Origin: Candidatus Heimdallarchaeota archaeon
GTDB taxonomy: Archaea > Asgardarchaeota > Heimdallarchaeia > JABLTI01
Reading direction: 5' to 3'
DNA: 23,137 nucleotides
Assembly (NCBI GenBank): GCA_030614005.1
Contig: JAUWKS010000052.1
Span: 1 to 23,137, forward strand
Positions 15,323-21,927 of this stretch are shown here, piece after piece (the stretch's first letter is position 1; the number at the start of each line of letters is the position of its first letter). The notes beneath the pieces were generated by a model. The model was not told where the DNA came from, searched no databases, and saw nothing but the letters and a program-made list of their open reading frames with translations. Made by a program: the position numbers and the translations under genes.

Positions 15323-17167
15323 GTGTCTAATGAAAAAGAACAAAATAATGAAGAAATTTTCGAGGACAATCATTTAGGTGAAGATACAAAAGAGCAATCC
15401 CAAGATGAACATCCTAATGAAAATGAAACCAAAAATGAAATTTCTTGTTCAAATTGTGGAACACTAAATCCGAAGTCAAATCTTTTTTGTAAAAACTGCG
15501 GATCTCCTTTTGTTCAGAAGGTTATTTGCCAACAGTGCAGTTCAGAAATGCCTGTTTATAATTCCTTTTGTTCAAAATGTGGTGGAATCCTAAAACAAAA
15601 TATACCACAAATTCAACAGACACCAGGTACAACACACATACCTCCTCATCCAAGCCAACAACAGATTTTTGATCCACAAAGATACTATGTGTCACCTCCT
15701 TCACCAGGAGAAATGAATGCCCAAGAACAAATACGGTTAGCACGTTATCAAACCTTTAACATAGTAGGTTCAGTTGCAGGATTTCTAATGATTTTTGCGG
15801 GAATTGTTGGTTTGATTGTCTTTATAATAGTGATGGCTTTCTCACCATCTGTTATAAATGAAATATTACTACCAGAAGATAGAGCCTATTATTATGGATC
15901 ACTGGTTGCGATGTTTATCCCTTTGATAATCGGTGTAACAATAGCAGGTATATCGTTGATAATTTATCGGCCTGAAGGAAATGCTTGGAAAGGATTTTAT
16001 TATACTTTGAGGTATCTATTCGTTGGATTTTCAGCTGTTTTAGCTATTTTAATCGTACTCAGTATTGGTTCATGGATATTTTATAACCCCTCAACACCTA
16101 TAAGTGGTTCAATACCATTTTGGTTGTTTGTAATGATTGAAATACCAATTGTTAACTTTCCATTGGTTGCTTTAGTTGTAATAATAATAATGGTATTTCT
16201 ACTTGGTGTTGTTTCTATGGTTATTCCAACATTGATAAGAATAATCAAAAAATATCAAAAAAACAATCAAATTTCAGAAGAAATATCTTTTGATGATAAT
16301 TCAGGCATAGAACCGATTGTTCTCGAATTAGATAAGGAGAAGAAAATTACTGAAGAATCTGATGTTAAATTATCTTTATTAGAAACGAGAAAAGGAGTTT
16401 TGCCAAGTATATTTTATCTTCTAAAAAACAATCCAATAATTGGTTCAATTGAACTATTAGGTGCTTCCTATTTAGTATCAATAATTCTAATTCTTATAAT
16501 GACTCCTTTTATCAATCAAAATACTTCAGGTGGGTCAACACCGGTTGAAGCACCAGATCCTTTTATTACTCTGTTCTCATTGGCTTGGGCAGGTGTTTTT
16601 GAGGAAATTAGTTTCCGTTTGCTAATTATTGGAATACCAATGATTTTCGTTATGCTTACTCGATATTTAATGCAACAACAAAAAAGTAGTATAGAAACTA
16701 TGGAACGAATACCTGCTGACCGAATGAAGGTATTAGATGATACTGAAAAAATAAAGGATTGGCAAATTCTATTTGCAATTAGAGGCAAATATAAGAAAAT
16801 TAGTTACCCAGAATGGACACTTATAATCATTTCATCGACTTTATTTGGATTTGCACATTGGGAGAAATGGACTGGTAGTTGGGGAGCTTGGAAGATCGTT
16901 CAAGCAGGAGTTGCAGGTCTATTTCTAAGTTATGCTTTTGTAAAATACGGTATTGAATCGGCAATATTTATTCATGTAAGCAATAATGTTCTTATTGGTT
17001 TAGCTGTTTTTTCAGGAACAGTAGGTGCTAATTGGATAGCAGGTATCTCAAGCTTTCTTGTTTCTTGTTTGTTTGCTGTTGGTATATTTAAAATCATTAG
17101 TTTTGTAATAAACTTCGCTCTGACATTATACTTTAGGAAAGGTGATAAAAAGAGCCTAAGTTATTAG
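15323..17167 (+). CDS. Double-zinc-ribbon plus CPBP (Abi / type II CAAX-like) intramembrane glutamic protease (GTG start)
   Basis: CSNC/CKNC and CQQC/CSKC ribbons, Pro/Gln linker, several TMs, then CPBP motifs FEEISFR, FGFAH, AIFIHVSNN. Confidence 0.85.
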   Translation: MSNEKEQNNEEIFEDNHLGEDTKEQSQDEHPNENETKNEISCSNCGTLNPKSNLFCKNCGSPFVQKVICQQCSSEMPVYNSFCSKCGGILKQNIPQIQQTPGTTHIPPHPSQQQIFDPQRYYVSPPSPGEMNAQEQIRLARYQTFNIVGSVAGFLMIFAGIVGLIVFIIVMAFSPSVINEILLPEDRAYYYGSLVAMFIPLIIGVTIAGISLIIYRPEGNAWKGFYYTLRYLFVGFSAVLAILIVLSIGSWIFYNPSTPISGSIPFWLFVMIEIPIVNFPLVALVVIIIMVFLLGVVSMVIPTLIRIIKKYQKNNQISEEISFDDNSGIEPIVLELDKEKKITEESDVKLSLLETRKGVLPSIFYLLKNNPIIGSIELLGASYLVSIILILIMTPFINQNTSGGSTPVEAPDPFITLFSLAWAGVFEEISFRLLIIGIPMIFVMLTRYLMQQQKSSIETMERIPADRMKVLDDTEKIKDWQILFAIRGKYKKISYPEWTLIIISSTLFGFAHWEKWTGSWGAWKIVQAGVAGLFLSYAFVKYGIESAIFIHVSNNVLIGLAVFSGTVGANWIAGISSFLVSCLFAVGIFKIISFVINFALTLYFRKGDKKSLSY

Positions 17168-17207: not shown

Positions 17208-17711
17208 TTGAATAAATTATCCACTGAACCTCAAAAAGAAAAATATGCTCATATAATTGGCATCGGAAATTTAACACGCTTAGATGATGGAGTTGCAATA
17301 CGAATAATCGAGCAACTAAGGAAAAAGAATATCCCATCCAATGTGAAGGTTACCGATCTTGGTACTGGAGGAATTGATATTATTTTAGCTTTAGATGGTT
17401 GGGAGAAGGGGATAATTATTGATGCTGTAGATTTGGATTATTTACATCCAGGAGCAATTGTTGAATATCGTGTTAAGGACGAGAATATACCAGAAATTAA
17501 AGGGCTAAGTTCAACTCATGGGTTTGATGCTGTAACTGCACTAAAATTAGCTTTCTCTTTACAAGAATATGATTTACCATCTGAGATACGAATAATTGGC
17601 ATACAAGTTAAAAACCTAGAAGGATTAGGAACAGATTTATCTTCAGAGGTTGAATCTGCAATACCCAAAGTAATTCAGCGAATATCAGAATTATTACAAA
17701 TTAAATTTTAG
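17208..17711 (+). CDS. Hydrogenase maturation protease (HyaD/HycI family, peptidase A31) (TTG start)
   Basis: IIGIGNLTRLDDGVA, DLGTGG, IIIDAV, STHGF, IIGIQ...GTDLSSEV. Confidence 0.88.
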   Translation: MNKLSTEPQKEKYAHIIGIGNLTRLDDGVAIRIIEQLRKKNIPSNVKVTDLGTGGIDIILALDGWEKGIIIDAVDLDYLHPGAIVEYRVKDENIPEIKGLSSTHGFDAVTALKLAFSLQEYDLPSEIRIIGIQVKNLEGLGTDLSSEVESAIPKVIQRISELLQIKF

Positions 17712-17730: not shown

Positions 17731-18252
17731 TTATTTTGGAATTTTATCAAAGGATAAACGAGCGATTTCGTTGAAAACGAGGTTTACTCCTAAACCATTT
17801 GAAGCAGAGGTTTCAACATAGCGTATTGCATTGTATTGTTTTATTGTTTCTGCAATTACATCTTCATCAAGGAGTTGGTCTCTGGGGAGATCGCTTTTTC
17901 CGCCAACTAGAATAATGGATGTGTTAGAATTTTTATCAACAAAACCATACCATGTTTCTAATCCTTTGACAGAAAGTGCTCTTGTTAAATCGAACATTAA
18001 AATAGCTACTAGTGCTCCTCGAAAATAATTATCGAAAATACCCATCTGTTTGAATTGTTCTTGACCACCGCAATCCCATACCGAAAGTGAAATCTCTCTT
18101 TCTTGGTAGCTCATTTGGTGAATATGAAACCCAACACCGATGGTAAGCTTTGTCGTATCAATAAACTCACCTGTAAGGTATCTTTGAATAAGGGTTGTTT
18201 TTCCAACTCCTCCATCGCCACCAAAAACGACTTTTGCTATGATTTTGCTCAA
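17731..18252 (-). CDS. Rab-like small GTPase (TTG start)
   Basis: G1 GDGGVGKT, G2/RabF1 TIGVGF, G3 WDCGGQEQF, RabF4 YFRGA, RabF5 LMFDLT, G4 variant GGKSD, G5 ETSAS. Confidence 0.9.
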   Translation of the reverse strand: MSKIIAKVVFGGDGGVGKTTLIQRYLTGEFIDTTKLTIGVGFHIHQMSYQEREISLSVWDCGGQEQFKQMGIFDNYFRGALVAILMFDLTRALSVKGLETWYGFVDKNSNTSIILVGGKSDLPRDQLLDEDVIAETIKQYNAIRYVETSASNGLGVNLVFNEIARLSFDKIPK

Positions 18253-18413
18253 GAATCTTCCACCAAATAACTGCTTTTCTAGATTGTAATAATTTTATTG
18301 TGATTTCTTAAAATATAAAGCTATTCGTTTAAGCATTTTATTTTTACCATAAATAAAAGATTGAAACAAGTACCGATAAAAATGAAAAGAGAAGAAAAAA
18401 TCAGCTAAAGAAC

Positions 18414-19217
18414 TTAGTGGATTTTTTCTATTGAAACATTCAATCTATCAAGTATTTTTGACATTTCGGCAATTTCAGTAACGGAGATAACTTTTAGTTT
18501 ATTTCTAAATACACTTGAGTTTAGCTCAGAAGCACTCTTGTATATTTGTCTTCTACGCCATACAGTAGGATCAGGGTGATAGAAGAGAATGGAAAGAGTA
18601 CTTTTGTTTTTATCGGCAACTAAGAAAACATCACCGGCTGGAATCTTTTTACCAATTAATTCTTTAGGTTGTCCATCTTCTAAGAGAGTGAATATTCTTG
18701 GAAGTTTTCCTGAAAAGAGCATGCCCATTTTCTTTGAAAGATCTTGGAGGTTGGCAAATGTTAAATCTTTTTCAGAAGTGATATCTCGAACAATAACTGA
18801 GAAATAGGGTTTAATAAGACCGTAAGCATCAAGAATCTCTCGAGTATAATCTTCTTTAAAGAGTAAAAAGAGAATACACTTTCTTCCATATTCTAAAATT
18901 CTATCATCAGTTGACGCTTCTGCTTCGACATCAAAAGTAATTGCCACTGCACGTAAACTAGGTTCACCCGGAACTGGGAGAGGACCAAATGATTTTTTGT
19001 CATCCATAGTATCAAACATTTGCTTTTTCTTCTCTTCCATAGTCTTTCCTGAGGAACCTTCATCAAGACCTACAATTGTCATACCTTCTACTGCTAATGT
19101 GAGTGTTTGTTCATCAGTTAGTGGAGTATCATTGTATGGGACCGCAGGGCCTGTATCCTCAAAGGTCACAAAAACAATTCCAAGCAAATGCTCCTTTTGT
19201 GATTCAAATCCAATCAT
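18414..19217 (-). CDS. Putative uDENN/longin-like domain fused to a C-terminal gelsolin-like domain
   Basis: aa 11-168: GIVFVTFEDTGP resembles the uDENN/NPRL2-type 'F....GP' opening, and the predicted order is bb-a-bbb-aa. aa 173-260: RIF...GDVFLVAD...WRRRQI...ASEL...KVISVTE...ILDRL follows gelsolin-repeat spacing. Alignment by eye only. Confidence 0.55.
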   Translation of the reverse strand: MIGFESQKEHLLGIVFVTFEDTGPAVPYNDTPLTDEQTLTLAVEGMTIVGLDEGSSGKTMEEKKKQMFDTMDDKKSFGPLPVPGEPSLRAVAITFDVEAEASTDDRILEYGRKCILFLLFKEDYTREILDAYGLIKPYFSVIVRDITSEKDLTFANLQDLSKKMGMLFSGKLPRIFTLLEDGQPKELIGKKIPAGDVFLVADKNKSTLSILFYHPDPTVWRRRQIYKSASELNSSVFRNKLKVISVTEIAEMSKILDRLNVSIEKIH

Positions 19218-19312
19218 TTCAAATTTTCATCCTTTAATTATTAGTTTCTAATCCTTCTTTCTCTCGCTTACTAACACATTATTTTAACATTACTTGTCCT
19301 TAATAAAAATTC

Positions 19313-20293
19313 CTAAACGGATATTATTTCATCAATATTTTTACTTTCTTCAATAAGGTTCTCAATAGCAATTCTTCCTTCTTCGCCTTCTGTGAGGAAA
19401 ATATCCAAAACCATTTCAGCTATTTGTTTTGCTTTTCCAATAGCTCCACCACGTTCCACAAAAAGACAACAAATCTTTTGGTTTCTGGAGACAAGAACCA
19501 TCGAATAATCCCCGACAGTCACAACATCCAAGAAACTGGAATCTTTAAAGAGTGTTCGGGTCATTGAATTTAACGCAGAGAGCAAACCAGTGATAAGAAC
19601 AGCATCTTGAGTATCATCCATAATATTAGAGAATTGAGCATCAAAATCAAGCAAACCATTAACGTCATAAATAAGCACTCTATGAATAGTGACATATTCA
19701 TGATAACCGTCGTAGTGCATAAGTTTTGAAATAAACCAATCGAATCCACGATATATGCCTTCTCCAGTCAAAATAGTGCAGATTTCGAAATGAAAGGAAC
19801 GGGGATCAGTGGGAGAGGAAATTTTTGCTAAATCGAAATAACTCAAAACTTTGCTAAGATTAACTTTATTTTCTGGGCTTTTTTTATTCACTAAGGTAAG
19901 TAAGGGAACATTAGAAGGTATTTTTTCTATTATTCTATGGAAAGGTTCAACAGATTTTCTAAGAGATTCATCGGATTCTCCGTTTAAAACATAGACAATG
20001 CCATCTGCAATTGAAAGAAAATAATCAATTACCTTTTCATCGTTTAAAATCTCTTTTCCAATATCGATGAGTTTAAACCACTCTTGACCATAAGAGATGT
20101 CAATCCAATTGAGAACTGTATCAGGAAAGACTTTGTCTCTGTTTGATGAAAGCAGATAATAAAGAGTAGTTGTTTTTCCGGAACCTTGTTCTCCAATAAG
20201 TAGCACCCAAGGAATTTTATGGTTCTCTTTACTCAAGTAGTTGATAAAGGATTCAATTGCTTTTTTTGGTGCTTTCATATTTAGAACATCCAT
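19313..20293 (-). CDS. Degenerate Arf-like GTPase domain fused to a C-terminal longin-like domain
   Basis: G1 GEQGSGKTT intact; G3 IDIGKE, G4 NKKS and G5 CTI degenerate; Arf-type TGEGIYRGFDWF. C-terminal IHRVLIYD-GLL...DAVLITGLLSAL...LDVVTVGDY longin pattern. Confidence 0.75.
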   Translation of the reverse strand: MDVLNMKAPKKAIESFINYLSKENHKIPWVLLIGEQGSGKTTTLYYLLSSNRDKVFPDTVLNWIDISYGQEWFKLIDIGKEILNDEKVIDYFLSIADGIVYVLNGESDESLRKSVEPFHRIIEKIPSNVPLLTLVNKKSPENKVNLSKVLSYFDLAKISSPTDPRSFHFEICTILTGEGIYRGFDWFISKLMHYDGYHEYVTIHRVLIYDVNGLLDFDAQFSNIMDDTQDAVLITGLLSALNSMTRTLFKDSSFLDVVTVGDYSMVLVSRNQKICCLFVERGGAIGKAKQIAEMVLDIFLTEGEEGRIAIENLIEESKNIDEIISV

Positions 20294-20436
20294 TTTCTAC
20301 TTTGCCTTGTCAGTCAGTTAGTAAAGCAAATTTTGTTTTCATATTGATAAAATGTAGTTCCAAATAAATGCTTATCGGTATATCTCCTAACATAGGAATA
20401 TGCTTAAAATTAAAAGAAGAAAATAAAAAAGAGGTA

Positions 20437-21396
20437 CTAAATAGAATCCAATGGGAAATAATTAGAGATAACTTCTTGAAGTGAAATACTTAAACCTTTA
20501 AGATATTGCATTTCAATTGCTTCAAAAATTCTGCTGGAAATAGTTAAAACTCTACTGACAGGATCATTAACGTCGATCAACATGCCCATAACAAAGAGCT
20601 TATTTTTGGTAATCACAAGTTGATAATCTTTCATAATCTCAAGAACAGTGACAGCTTCGTCATAATCTCTCATTTGCTTAGCGAATCGTTCAGTTTCTCT
20701 AATAGATTCACGATAGGCTGTAGCAACATTTGCTTGTTGCGTAGGACTGCCAAAAATACATTGATCTAATTCTTTGCCATTAGAATCAAAGGCAACAGCT
20801 GAAAATATTTTAACATGCCAAGTGGGAATAGCTTGATCTTTGGTACCAATATCAACTAACCAATCCCAAGCAGGAAACAAACCTTCACCTGTAAGAGCAG
20901 AACAACGAAACATGTTAAATGGACGATCAAGACGAATCATTTGTTGAAGATCTAAAGCTTCCATAACTTCTACAGAAGTAGCAGCATCCTCTTTGTCAGA
21001 CTTATTAGCTAAGAAAAGAACAGGTGCATTAGGATCAGTGTTTTCTAAAGTCTCATAGAAAACCTCTTTGGCTAAATTAAATCTTTTTTGATCAGCAGCA
21101 TCAACAACAAAAACAATCGTTTGAGCTTTAGTAACAAACTTCTTCCAAAGGGTCTTGCGAATCGGAGCGTGCCCACCTAAATCCCATACGACAAACTCTA
21201 GTGTTCTATATCTATATACTTCAATATTTACTCCGAATGTTGGTTTTGACAGAGTGTATTCTGATCTTAGTATTCTTCTCACTATTGTTGTTTTTCCTGC
21301 TGCATCTAAGCCTATTATTGCTACATGTTGTTTTGATGATGCATCATCACCTGTTTTTTTCTTGTCGGCGCTGATCAATCTTCGAAGGAAACTCAC
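20437..21396 (-). CDS. Arf/Sar1-like small GTPase fused to a C-terminal longin-like domain (GTG start)
   Basis: N-terminal amphipathic MSFLRRLIS, GLDAAGKTT, PTFGVNIE, WDLGGH, LWKKF, FVVDAAD..RF, NKSD, CSALTGEGL...DWL. About 125-aa C-terminal bb-a-bbb-aa domain. GGAG upstream. Confidence 0.88.
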   Translation of the reverse strand: MSFLRRLISADKKKTGDDASSKQHVAIIGLDAAGKTTIVRRILRSEYTLSKPTFGVNIEVYRYRTLEFVVWDLGGHAPIRKTLWKKFVTKAQTIVFVVDAADQKRFNLAKEVFYETLENTDPNAPVLFLANKSDKEDAATSVEVMEALDLQQMIRLDRPFNMFRCSALTGEGLFPAWDWLVDIGTKDQAIPTWHVKIFSAVAFDSNGKELDQCIFGSPTQQANVATAYRESIRETERFAKQMRDYDEAVTVLEIMKDYQLVITKNKLFVMGMLIDVNDPVSRVLTISSRIFEAIEMQYLKGLSISLQEVISNYFPLDSI

Positions 21397-21437
21397 TCTT
21401 TTTTTATCTCCAGTTTTTTCTATGCTGTCTTTCTTAT

Positions 21438-21461
21438 TATCTTTAATACCTATCTTTAATA
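21438..21461. repeat. Tandem 11-bp direct repeat TATCTTTAATA x2 (13-bp period) upstream of the GTPase cluster
   Basis: Copies at 21438-21448 and 21451-21461, separated by CC, read directly. Confidence 0.6.
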
Positions 21462-21468
21462 AGAATTT

Positions 21469-21476
21469 CTTATATA
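21469..21476 (-). promoter_or_regulatory. Putative TATA box for the Arf-like GTPase gene
   Basis: TATATAAG on the minus strand preceded by an A-rich BRE-like stretch, about 73 nt upstream of the GTG. Confidence 0.4.
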
Positions 21477-21719
21477 TTTTTACTGTTTATTGTTTTTTTT
21501 TATGCTTAAAAAATCTTTAGCTATCCTCTTTTTTCTTCTTTTTTTTGTCAATAGGATTTTTTTCACTTCTTTTCCTTTTTTATGTTTTTTTCCTTTCTTT
21601 TTTCGGTCGTCTTCCGTTTCTCTCCAAAGAGGATGAATATTCAAAATCATACCATATCTGAACCTTTAAGAGAAGCAAAGAGAAAGAAAAGGCATACATT
21701 GAAAAGTTGATAGAGAAAA

Positions 21720-21869
21720 ATGACCGAAGTAATTTGTCCCCACTGTGAAGAACCATTAGGATTCGAAGATATTTGTTGTAATCCCGTTGGAAATGAGAAC
21801 ATTGAGAAAAAACCGTTAGTCTATTATTGTCCTAAATGTCGGAAAATCTTGGGATTTACCAATGATTAA
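21720..21869 (+). CDS. Small zinc-finger protein (49 aa, two CPxC motifs)
   Basis: Hand translation: MTEVICPHCEEPLGFEDICCNPVGNENIEKKPLVYYCPKCRKILGFTND*. Below the ORF-track length cutoff. Confidence 0.8.
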   Translation: MTEVICPHCEEPLGFEDICCNPVGNENIEKKPLVYYCPKCRKILGFTND

Positions 21870-21927
21870 AAGACCTTAATTTTTCAAAATAATTTTTATA
21901 ATAGTTTTACTTAAACAATTAACTGTT

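Follow-up and report, generated by a model that had tools for sequence, protein, structure and literature searches.

A conserved Heimdallarchaeial gene cluster encoding an Arf-longin GTPase, a degenerate Arf-longin paralogue and a longin-gelsolin protein

Several eukaryotic GTPase-activating proteins (GAPs) are built on longin domains: C9orf72-SMCR8(-WDR41) acts on Arf1/Arf6, FLCN-FNIP on RagC/D, and GATOR1 (NPRL2-NPRL3-DEPDC5) on RagA/B. In C9orf72, SMCR8, FLCN and NPRL2, a Gly-Pro (GP) motif, placed where the beta1-beta2 loop ends or strand beta2 begins, lies beside the arginine finger (PMC12290439, section 2.4); the motif is specific to GAP-type longins, and FNIP2, NPRL3, adaptins, TRAPP subunits and DENND proteins do not have it. 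The same study (Traffic 2025) reported Heimdallarchaeial longins with both the GP motif and the arginine, and asked whether their client GTPases are ArfR or Rag GTPases. Here we describe four consecutive minus-strand genes, g1 to g4, at positions 17731-21396 of contig JAUWKS010000052.1 of Candidatus Heimdallarchaeota archaeon (assembly GCA_030614005.1); the whole contig of 23,137 nucleotides (C49 among our contigs) was analysed and is referred to as the window. They encode, in order, an Arf-family GTPase with a C-terminal longin-type domain, a degenerate paralogue of it, a longin-gelsolin protein and a Rab-like GTPase. From the domain identities, motifs and synteny that we observed, we infer a switch module built on small GTPases, in which g1, g2 and g3 form an old core, g4 is a later addition, g3 would regulate g1, most likely as its GAP, and g2 would be a dead dimer partner; we give this reading an even chance of being correct.

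The g3 protein resembles the eukaryotic longin GAPs in having a GP motif at the start of beta2 together with a conserved arginine, the same arrangement as in the Heimdallarchaeial longins of PMC12290439. It resembles C9orf72-SMCR8 in a further respect, as the client of that complex is an Arf (PDB 7mge) and the GTPase linked to g3 by the genome is also of the Arf family. It differs from FLCN, SMCR8 and C9orf72 in having a gelsolin domain where these have a DENN domain, and, unlike the clients of the eukaryotic longin GAPs, its candidate client GTPases g1 and g2 carry longin-type domains of their own. Whereas PMC12290439 left the client open and gave neither a gelsolin domain nor a gene context, the conserved operon described here indicates an Arf-longin pair. 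A Rag-like GTPase pair, predicted to form a heterodimer, is encoded in an operon of 'Ca. Prometheoarchaeum syntrophicum' MK-D1 (PMC10933270), and both this pair and Rag/Gtr are, like g1 and g2 and like the genes at Hodarchaeales-type loci considered below, tandem paralogous GTPases that each have a C-terminal alpha/beta domain of dimerisation type. In contrast to Rag/Gtr and the MK-D1 pair, the C-terminal topology here is modelled as longin and not roadblock, one partner is predicted to be hydrolysis-dead, and a GP-longin-gelsolin protein is encoded by a third gene. An operon described from Asgard archaea (Liu et al. 2021; bioRxiv 10.1101/2020.10.19.343400), which combines genes for a Rab-like GTPase, a DENN protein and a roadblock protein resembling LAMTOR1, is likewise a conserved neighbourhood of a small GTPase with predicted roadblock, longin or DENN regulators; it differs in being found in most Asgard archaea rather than in two families of one class, in lacking the Arf-longin fusions and the longin-gelsolin protein, and in its predicted exchange-factor rather than GAP function. 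Published Asgard gelsolins comprise ProGel (the domain alone), 1DGelX (with a coiled-coil domain X) and 2DGel (two domains) (PMC7444086), and a longin N-terminal to a gelsolin domain, as in g3, is not among these architectures. Asgard operons of small GTPases with roadblock, longin or DENN proteins, GTPase-longin fusions, paired Rag-like genes and GP-motif Asgard longins have thus all been described already. Neither an operon tying a GP-motif longin to an active/dead Arf-longin pair nor the longin-gelsolin architecture was found in the literature searched.

Conservation and history of the cluster

The listing of open reading frames (ORFs) agrees with an earlier note on this DNA, which had described four adjacent minus-strand genes separated by 143 base pairs (bp) (g1-g2), 95 bp (g2-g3) and 161 bp (g3-g4) with no unrelated gene between them; there is no intervening ORF of similar size. 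In the family to which the window belongs (the own family), the order g1-g2-g3-g4 and the common strand are the same in each of the 13 related loci whose length allows this to be seen. These include two in which g2 is only 54% identical to that of the window, and one of the two (L062) has a different downstream flank. In one other family that has the core (the second family), g1-g2-g3 are adjacent in 24/24 genomes in which g2 and g3 are both complete on one contig. The second-family proteins are 37% (g1), 30% (g2) and 40% (g3) identical to those of the window, the genes overlap or lie a few bases apart, and the flanks differ from those of the window, with BacA and GCV_H upstream and GNAT or NYN downstream. 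Order and strand are therefore conserved across divergent genomes, for the core in two families and for all four genes in one, and this arrangement exceeds chance. That the four are chance neighbours, a run of GTPase and longin genes produced by local duplication with no shared function, is exceedingly improbable. Such runs might be expected in a genome with at least about 35 small-GTPase-like loci, g1 and g2 are indeed paralogues, and most eukaryote-like genes of Asgard archaea lie outside conserved neighbourhoods (Liu et al. 2021), but here order and orientation persist between two families whose proteins are only 30-40% identical, with gene overlaps and altered flanks, and the paralogues elsewhere in the genome are unclustered. 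The own genome holds no second copy of the module: paralogues of g1 (contigs C35 and C4), g3 (C76 and C87) and g4 (C73) have unrelated neighbours.

Clear g2 orthologues (E < 1e-30) were found only in these two families, in 9/11 own-family and 27/30 second-family genomes, and they adjoin g3 wherever contigs permit. The two remaining own-family genomes have a 77-residue piece of g2 at a contig end or a weak match to a paralogue, and the three remaining second-family genomes have weaker, mostly partial g2 matches. Relatives of g3, sought in 300 genomes of the phylum, are widespread in the window's class, where most families have them, but few families outside it do. The expectation of the earlier note that the genes would be conserved together in related genomes was thus upheld for g1-g2-g3 in both families, and for g4 in the own family only. 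Orthologues of g4 with 74-95% identity lie downstream of g3 in every own-family locus, whereas no orthologue of g4 is present in the second family, where the best matches are 33-38% identical and located elsewhere.

The g4 protein is a Rab relative, as the earlier note had it. It scores 124.1 bits against Pfam Ras (PF00071), and its best 60 PDB sequence matches are all Rabs or Ypts, with E of about 1e-22 to 1e-24 and Rab11, Ypt31, Sec4 and Rab7 the best. It has DCGGQ, and GKSD replaces NKxD, with Gly for Asn; it ends in ...FDKIPK, with no C-terminal Cys of the kind expected of a prenylation motif. A g4 paralogue, 51% identical, is present on contig C73.

The position of g4 bears on the mechanism put forward in the earlier note, an Arf-to-Rab relay in which a membrane-docked g1-g2 heterodimer recruits g3, g3 serves as the exchange factor of g4 in the manner of Mon1-Ccz1, TRAPP and DENND proteins, and the gelsolin domain contacts actin. 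Most characterised longin modules are indeed Rab guanine nucleotide exchange factors (GEFs), g4 follows g3 in 13/13 own-family loci, including L062 with its altered downstream flank, and the Asgard LAMTOR1-like/Rab-like/DENN operon was proposed to be a GEF module (Liu et al. 2021). However, g4 is missing from the second-family operon, and because the second family lacks it, g3-type proteins and their conserved residues are older than any association with g4. Moreover, GEF-type longins are without the GP motif (PMC12290439), and in g3 this motif is invariant. The relay is weakened because g4 stands outside the older core and the longin of g3 carries GAP-type residues, and we now regard it as unlikely.

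Contigs of Hodarchaeales type carry two Arf-longin genes in tandem, both intact (DLGGQ, NKxD), without a g3-like neighbour. It is likely that the tandem Arf-longin pair is old, and that, before the two families diverged, one copy decayed, the other gained its histidine, and the GP-longin-gelsolin gene joined them; g4 is likely either to have joined later in one family or to have been lost from the other. The tandem pairs at L068:2838-4909 and L071:4001-5948 are ~33% identical to g1 and lie directly upstream of a DNA primase small-subunit gene.

An Arf-family GTPase and its degenerate paralogue

The domain assignments of the earlier note for g1 and g2 also hold, g1 being a clear Arf with a C-terminal domain of longin topology in its model and g2 a weaker Arf that lacks DxxG. 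The G domain of g1 has an Arf-like fold and scores 145.8 bits against Pfam Arf PF00025 (cut-off 22.3; E 1e-42; residues 21-182), and its top PDB sequence matches are Arl1, Arf1, Arl8 and HodArfR1 (E 1e-28 to 1e-30). Its motifs are GLDAAGKT, T53, DLGG, NKSD and SAL, and G29, G34, K35, T36, T53, D72, G74, G75, N131, K132 and D134 are invariant in g1 and its relatives (36 sequences). The canonical catalytic Gln of Arfs (DxGGQ) is replaced by His76, which is kept in both operon families, whereas more distant Arf-longin relatives (Hodarchaeales, Promethearchaeota) have Gln at this position. Sar1 and SRbeta also have His in place of the catalytic Gln, and His at the catalytic position accompanies reliance on an external GAP. 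The locus is like the Sar1 and SRbeta systems in this catalytic residue and in the pairing of an Arf-family GTPase with a gelsolin-like (Sec23) or longin (SRX of SRalpha) domain. It is unlike Sar1-Sec23 and SRbeta-SRalpha in that the remaining domains of Sec23 are missing, the g1 GTPase carries its longin in cis, and the gelsolin domain of g3 is nearest to actin-binding Asgard gelsolins.

The extreme N-terminus of g1 is compatible with a membrane anchor in its model, which places a short helix at residues 3-10 with a predicted local distance difference test score (pLDDT) of only about 38. The hydrophobic moment of this region, 0.55, does not distinguish it from shuffled sequences, 17% of which equal or exceed that value. 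The start MSF..RR(L/I) is kept in both families, and the phmmer alignment of g1 with HodArfR1 (8oul) begins at residue 1.

In the AlphaFold2 model, the C-terminal domain of g1 follows a 12-residue linker and consists of strands 197-204 and 209-214, helix 218-241, strands 248-254, 258-264 and 268-275, and helices 280-299 and 306-313, with pLDDT of 86-97. This order, beta-beta-alpha-beta-beta-beta-alpha-alpha, is that of a longin-type domain, and the assignment rests on the modelled topology because sequence profiles gave nothing. The domain has no Pfam match; hhalign against the g3 family gave a probability of 0.3%; and its profile produced only spurious matches to designed repeat proteins among PDB sequences. 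A feature search of the ESM Atlas returned weak leads to roadblock (Robl_LC7), LAMTOR, MAPKK1_Int and Gtr1_RagA, with scores of at most 0.84 (0.79-0.82 for the Robl_LC7, MAPKK1_Int and Gtr1_RagA clusters), and fold searches with the whole g1 model were uninformative on this domain, the lists being filled by G-domain matches. A reading of g1 and g2 as Rag-like GTPases with roadblock domains was considered and set aside, as the G domains of g1 and g2 are Arf by profile and fold and not of Gtr1_RagA type, and a roadblock C-terminal domain would have the order alpha-beta-beta-alpha-beta-beta-beta, where the model of g1 shows the longin order instead.

The g2 protein retains the Arf fold (55.3 bits against Pfam Arf, E 7e-15, residues 26-190) and aligns with g1 over residues 25-319 (tblastn E 5e-13). 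This includes its C-terminal domain, in which the invariant positions of the family alignment include G236, L237, A240, N242, K287 and A288. The P-loop (GEQGSGKT) and the NK of the G4 motif are conserved, with G34, G39, K40 and N136 invariant and K137 nearly so. In contrast, the switch II motif DxxG(Q/H) has been lost in both families, reading DIGKE here and EADEE, EVDEE or EAGEE in the second family; there is no catalytic residue, and neither the G4 Asp nor the G5 motif is constant. As g2 has thus lost the switch II and catalytic motifs of a GTPase while keeping the fold, 'pseudo-Arf' is a fair label. Judging from these motifs, g2 may still bind nucleotide, because the P-loop and NK are kept, and should not hydrolyse GTP, because DxxG(Q/H) is gone. 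In the tree, g2 forms a clade with support of 100/99 on a long stem, and it is the fastest-evolving of the four proteins: where it is 54% identical, the values are 66% for g1, 77% for g3 and 75% for g4. Orthologues of g2 are 320-321 amino acids (aa) long and all begin at the Met five codons downstream of the listed ATG (Met6 of the listed protein); the true start is therefore probably 20278, which would widen the g1-g2 gap to about 158 bp.

The longin-gelsolin protein and its candidate client

Neither g3 nor its 32 relatives match any Pfam or NCBIfam family, and an exhaustive search among 1.84 billion representatives recovered the g3 family as 76 clusters at 50% identity. The AlphaFold2 model (pLDDT 76.8) has two domains, which agree with the longin-gelsolin assignment of the earlier note. 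The first has a longin fold whose matches are Lst4, C9orf72-SMCR8, GATOR1 and FLCN-FNIP2, the top one being the dimeric Asgard longin 8yqg; matches of g3 in Foldseek include 7mge, and its neighbours in AlphaFold DB carry the annotation 'Folliculin/SMCR8 longin domain-containing'. No sequence-level homology was detected between g3 and the eukaryotic longin GAPs. The second domain has a gelsolin fold and detectable homology to gelsolins, the g3 family profile matching ProGel by sequence with E 4.5e-5. When 33 members of the family are aligned (mean column identity 29%), conservation is concentrated in the longin domain. The GP motif of GAP-type longins is present as G23 and P24, which are invariant (33/33), P24 being the first residue of beta2 in the model, and D21 precedes them in 31/33. 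A second conserved site in the loop between beta4 and beta5 comprises D104 (33/33), R106 (32/33), G111 (30/33) and R112 (26/33); other conserved positions are N29, the invariant G78 and P79, and P81 (32/33).

The g3 protein is read as a GAP for g1 because the invariant GP and the conserved Arg106 match the signature of eukaryotic longin GAPs, and it is the only conserved partner in the operon that is not a GTPase. In the mechanism that we propose, g1 would be the active switch, leaning on an external GAP through His76; g1 and g2 would pair via their C-terminal longin-type domains, by analogy with Rag/Gtr, which pair via theirs; and g2 would be the non-hydrolysing dimer partner of g1. The GAP would be g3, giving R106 to g1 as an arginine finger, while its gelsolin domain would provide either a tie to actin or a grip on the GTPase like that of the gelsolin-like domain of Sec23 on Sar1. 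The Rab-like g4, sharing the regulation of the core in just one family, may act downstream of it or in parallel. Co-folding of g1, g2, two GTP and g3, with g3 scored, gave 0.69, compared with 0.76 when an unrelated protein replaced g2, a result that speaks neither for nor against binding. A wider interpretation, that the core is a surviving prokaryotic relative of the longin-GAP systems, in which a GP/Arg longin serves as GAP for a membrane-binding, Sar1-like Arf active/dead heterodimer and the gelsolin domain of that GAP couples the GTPase cycle directly to actin filaments, is doubtful though not negligible.

Several points weigh against g3 being the GAP of g1. Among longin domains, GEFs and scaffolds are commoner than GAPs, and in the eukaryotic longin GAPs two longin proteins, each followed by a DENN or another domain, act together as a heterodimer. 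In g3 the longin is followed by a gelsolin-like domain and not by DENN, and the cluster holds no second GP-longin gene that would be an obvious partner. The equivalence of R106 to the arginine fingers FLCN R164, SMCR8 R147 and NPRL2 R78 is a candidate assignment made by motif position, and sequence profiles tie the C-terminal domain of g1 neither to longins nor to solved structures. In more distant families, g3-like genes are without GTPase neighbours, so that the GTPase link is specific to one orthologous group and does not extend to the whole g3 family. Lastly, the genes may be transcribed separately in the window's genus, because the gaps are of 95-161 bp and a T5-T6 run follows each stop. 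In each of the spacers at 18253-18413, 19218-19312 and 20294-20436 (minus strand), this run lies 4-32 nucleotides past the preceding stop, and the g3-g4 spacer also has a TTTATATT element 67 nucleotides upstream of the g4 start. The runs and the element may be terminators and a promoter, respectively, with the reservation that T-runs are common at a genome G+C of ~33%.

Relatives with a GP-longin (P0094, P0126, P0141) have V4R, TPR or, in a protein of 597 aa, a Gtr1/RagA-type GTPase fused in place of the gelsolin domain; to judge from these architectures, the g3-type longin is a mobile module. This variety bears on a second reading of the core, that the g3 longin pairs with the longin of g1 or g2 to form a three-protein platform, like those that Ragulator and other longin-roadblock assemblies provide for Rag GTPases, with localisation, for example to actin, as its output. 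The core genes between them specify three longin-type domains, dimeric GTPase platforms are typical of longin and roadblock domains (PMC10933270), and 8yqg, which the g3 longin matches best in structure, is itself dimeric. Strict conservation of D21-x-GP and D104-x-R106 despite the differing partners and fusions nevertheless agrees better with a catalytic site, or one in the nucleotide pocket, than with a dimer interface specific to one partner, and we consider a purely scaffolding role rather unlikely. Longin-gelsolin genes 33-36% identical to g3 (L045:6070-6801, L046, L047) occur in a distant family of the class, between genes for a CheR methyltransferase and a methyl-accepting chemotaxis protein; at these loci a conserved ~200-aa gene without a Pfam match directly follows the g3-like gene on the same strand.

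The gelsolin domain could also be the part of g3 that contacts the GTPase. The gelsolin-like domain of Sec23 helps to hold Sar1 (PMC11914678), and in a COPII-like arrangement g1 would be Sar1-like, as its His76 and its predicted N-terminal helix would suit, and the gelsolin domain of g3, not the longin, would contact it and supply the catalytic residue as Sec23 does, with no link to actin. The gelsolin half is, however, much less conserved than the longin half, and no Arg in it exceeds 25/33, which is the most that the best of them, R174, reaches. Its nearest relatives by profile and fold are the Asgard gelsolins ProGel and 2DGel and not Sec23, and the trunk, helical and beta-barrel domains of Sec23 are absent; this arrangement is unlikely. 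Those nearest relatives bind actin (PMC7444086), and by analogy the gelsolin domain of g3 may do so too.

How the GTPase network of eukaryotic endomembranes came about, with Arf, Sar, Rab and Rag on one side and longin, roadblock and DENN regulators on the other, remains to be explained; Asgard genomes are rich in its parts, with little evidence on which part works with which. For one orthologous group, the operon offers a concrete and testable answer to the client question of PMC12290439: the predicted client is a specific Arf-longin GTPase with a His active site that looks GAP-dependent, accompanied by its dead paralogue. The longin-gelsolin architecture could join GTPase signalling to actin, or echo the gelsolin domain of Sec23 that Asgard Sec23-like proteins lack. 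If the wider interpretation given above were true, a membrane switch and the cytoskeleton would be coupled in one polypeptide, for which there is no described eukaryotic or archaeal counterpart. The products of g1, g2 and g3 are small and soluble-looking and so amenable to standard biochemistry, and the locus is worth following up because an open question about clients becomes a biochemical experiment with three proteins.

Feature coordinates and flanking genes

The cluster and its domains are listed in Table 1. On the g4 side it is bounded by a convergent HycI-like gene (17208-17711, plus strand) and on the g1 side by a divergent MFS gene (from 21928, plus strand), and other functions encoded on the contig are unrelated (ABC transporters, a PAS histidine kinase, an M20 peptidase).

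Table 1. Coordinates of the g1-g4 genes, their domains and selected residues in the window
Feature	Position	Strand	Size or residues	Description
g1	20437-21396	-	319 aa, GTG start	Arf-family GTPase with C-terminal longin-type domain
g1 N-terminal 20 residues	21337-21396	-		Short predicted helix, residues 3-10; candidate amphipathic anchor
g1 GTPase domain	20842-21336	-	residues 21-185	G1-G5 motifs intact
g1 His76	21169-21171	-		In WDLGGH; aligns with catalytic Gln of eukaryotic Arfs (WD[IL]GGQ)
g1 C-terminal domain	20440-20814	-	residues 195-319	Longin-type topology in the model
g2	19313-20293	-	326 aa listed; probably 321 aa from 20278	Degenerate Arf-longin paralogue
g2 C-terminal domain	19316-19696	-	about residues 200-326	Homologous to g1 C-terminal domain; column-for-column alignment
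g3	18414-19217	-	267 aa	Two domains: longin, then gelsolin
g3 longin domain	18705-19205	-	residues 5-171	FLCN/SMCR8/NPRL2-like longin fold
g3 Gly23-Pro24 (GP motif)	19146-19151	-		Start of longin strand beta2
g3 Asp104-x-Arg106	18900-18908	-		beta4-beta5 loop (between strands 85-98 and 112-121); candidate arginine finger
g3 gelsolin-like domain	18417-18704	-	residues 172-267	Gelsolin fold
g4	17731-18252	-	173 aa, TTG start	Rab-like small GTPase; lineage-specific cluster member

Beyond the HycI-like gene, a plus-strand gene at 15323-17167 encodes a 614-aa protein with an N-terminal double zinc ribbon (Pfam DZR) and many predicted membrane helices, whose motifs EEISFR and FGFAHW resemble those of a CPBP/CAAX-type intramembrane protease; this gene and the HycI-like gene also adjoin the cluster in relatives (L061). 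In most relatives (L033-L037, L061) g1 is directly preceded, on its own strand, by a ~374-aa gene that lacks a Pfam match and has an HxHxQ (HIT/GalT-like) motif. In the own genome the HxHxQ gene is on another contig (C68:711-1814) and the divergent MFS gene occupies its place (on the 21397-21927 side). The window being a whole contig, the displacement of the HxHxQ gene could reflect a rearrangement or an effect of assembly.

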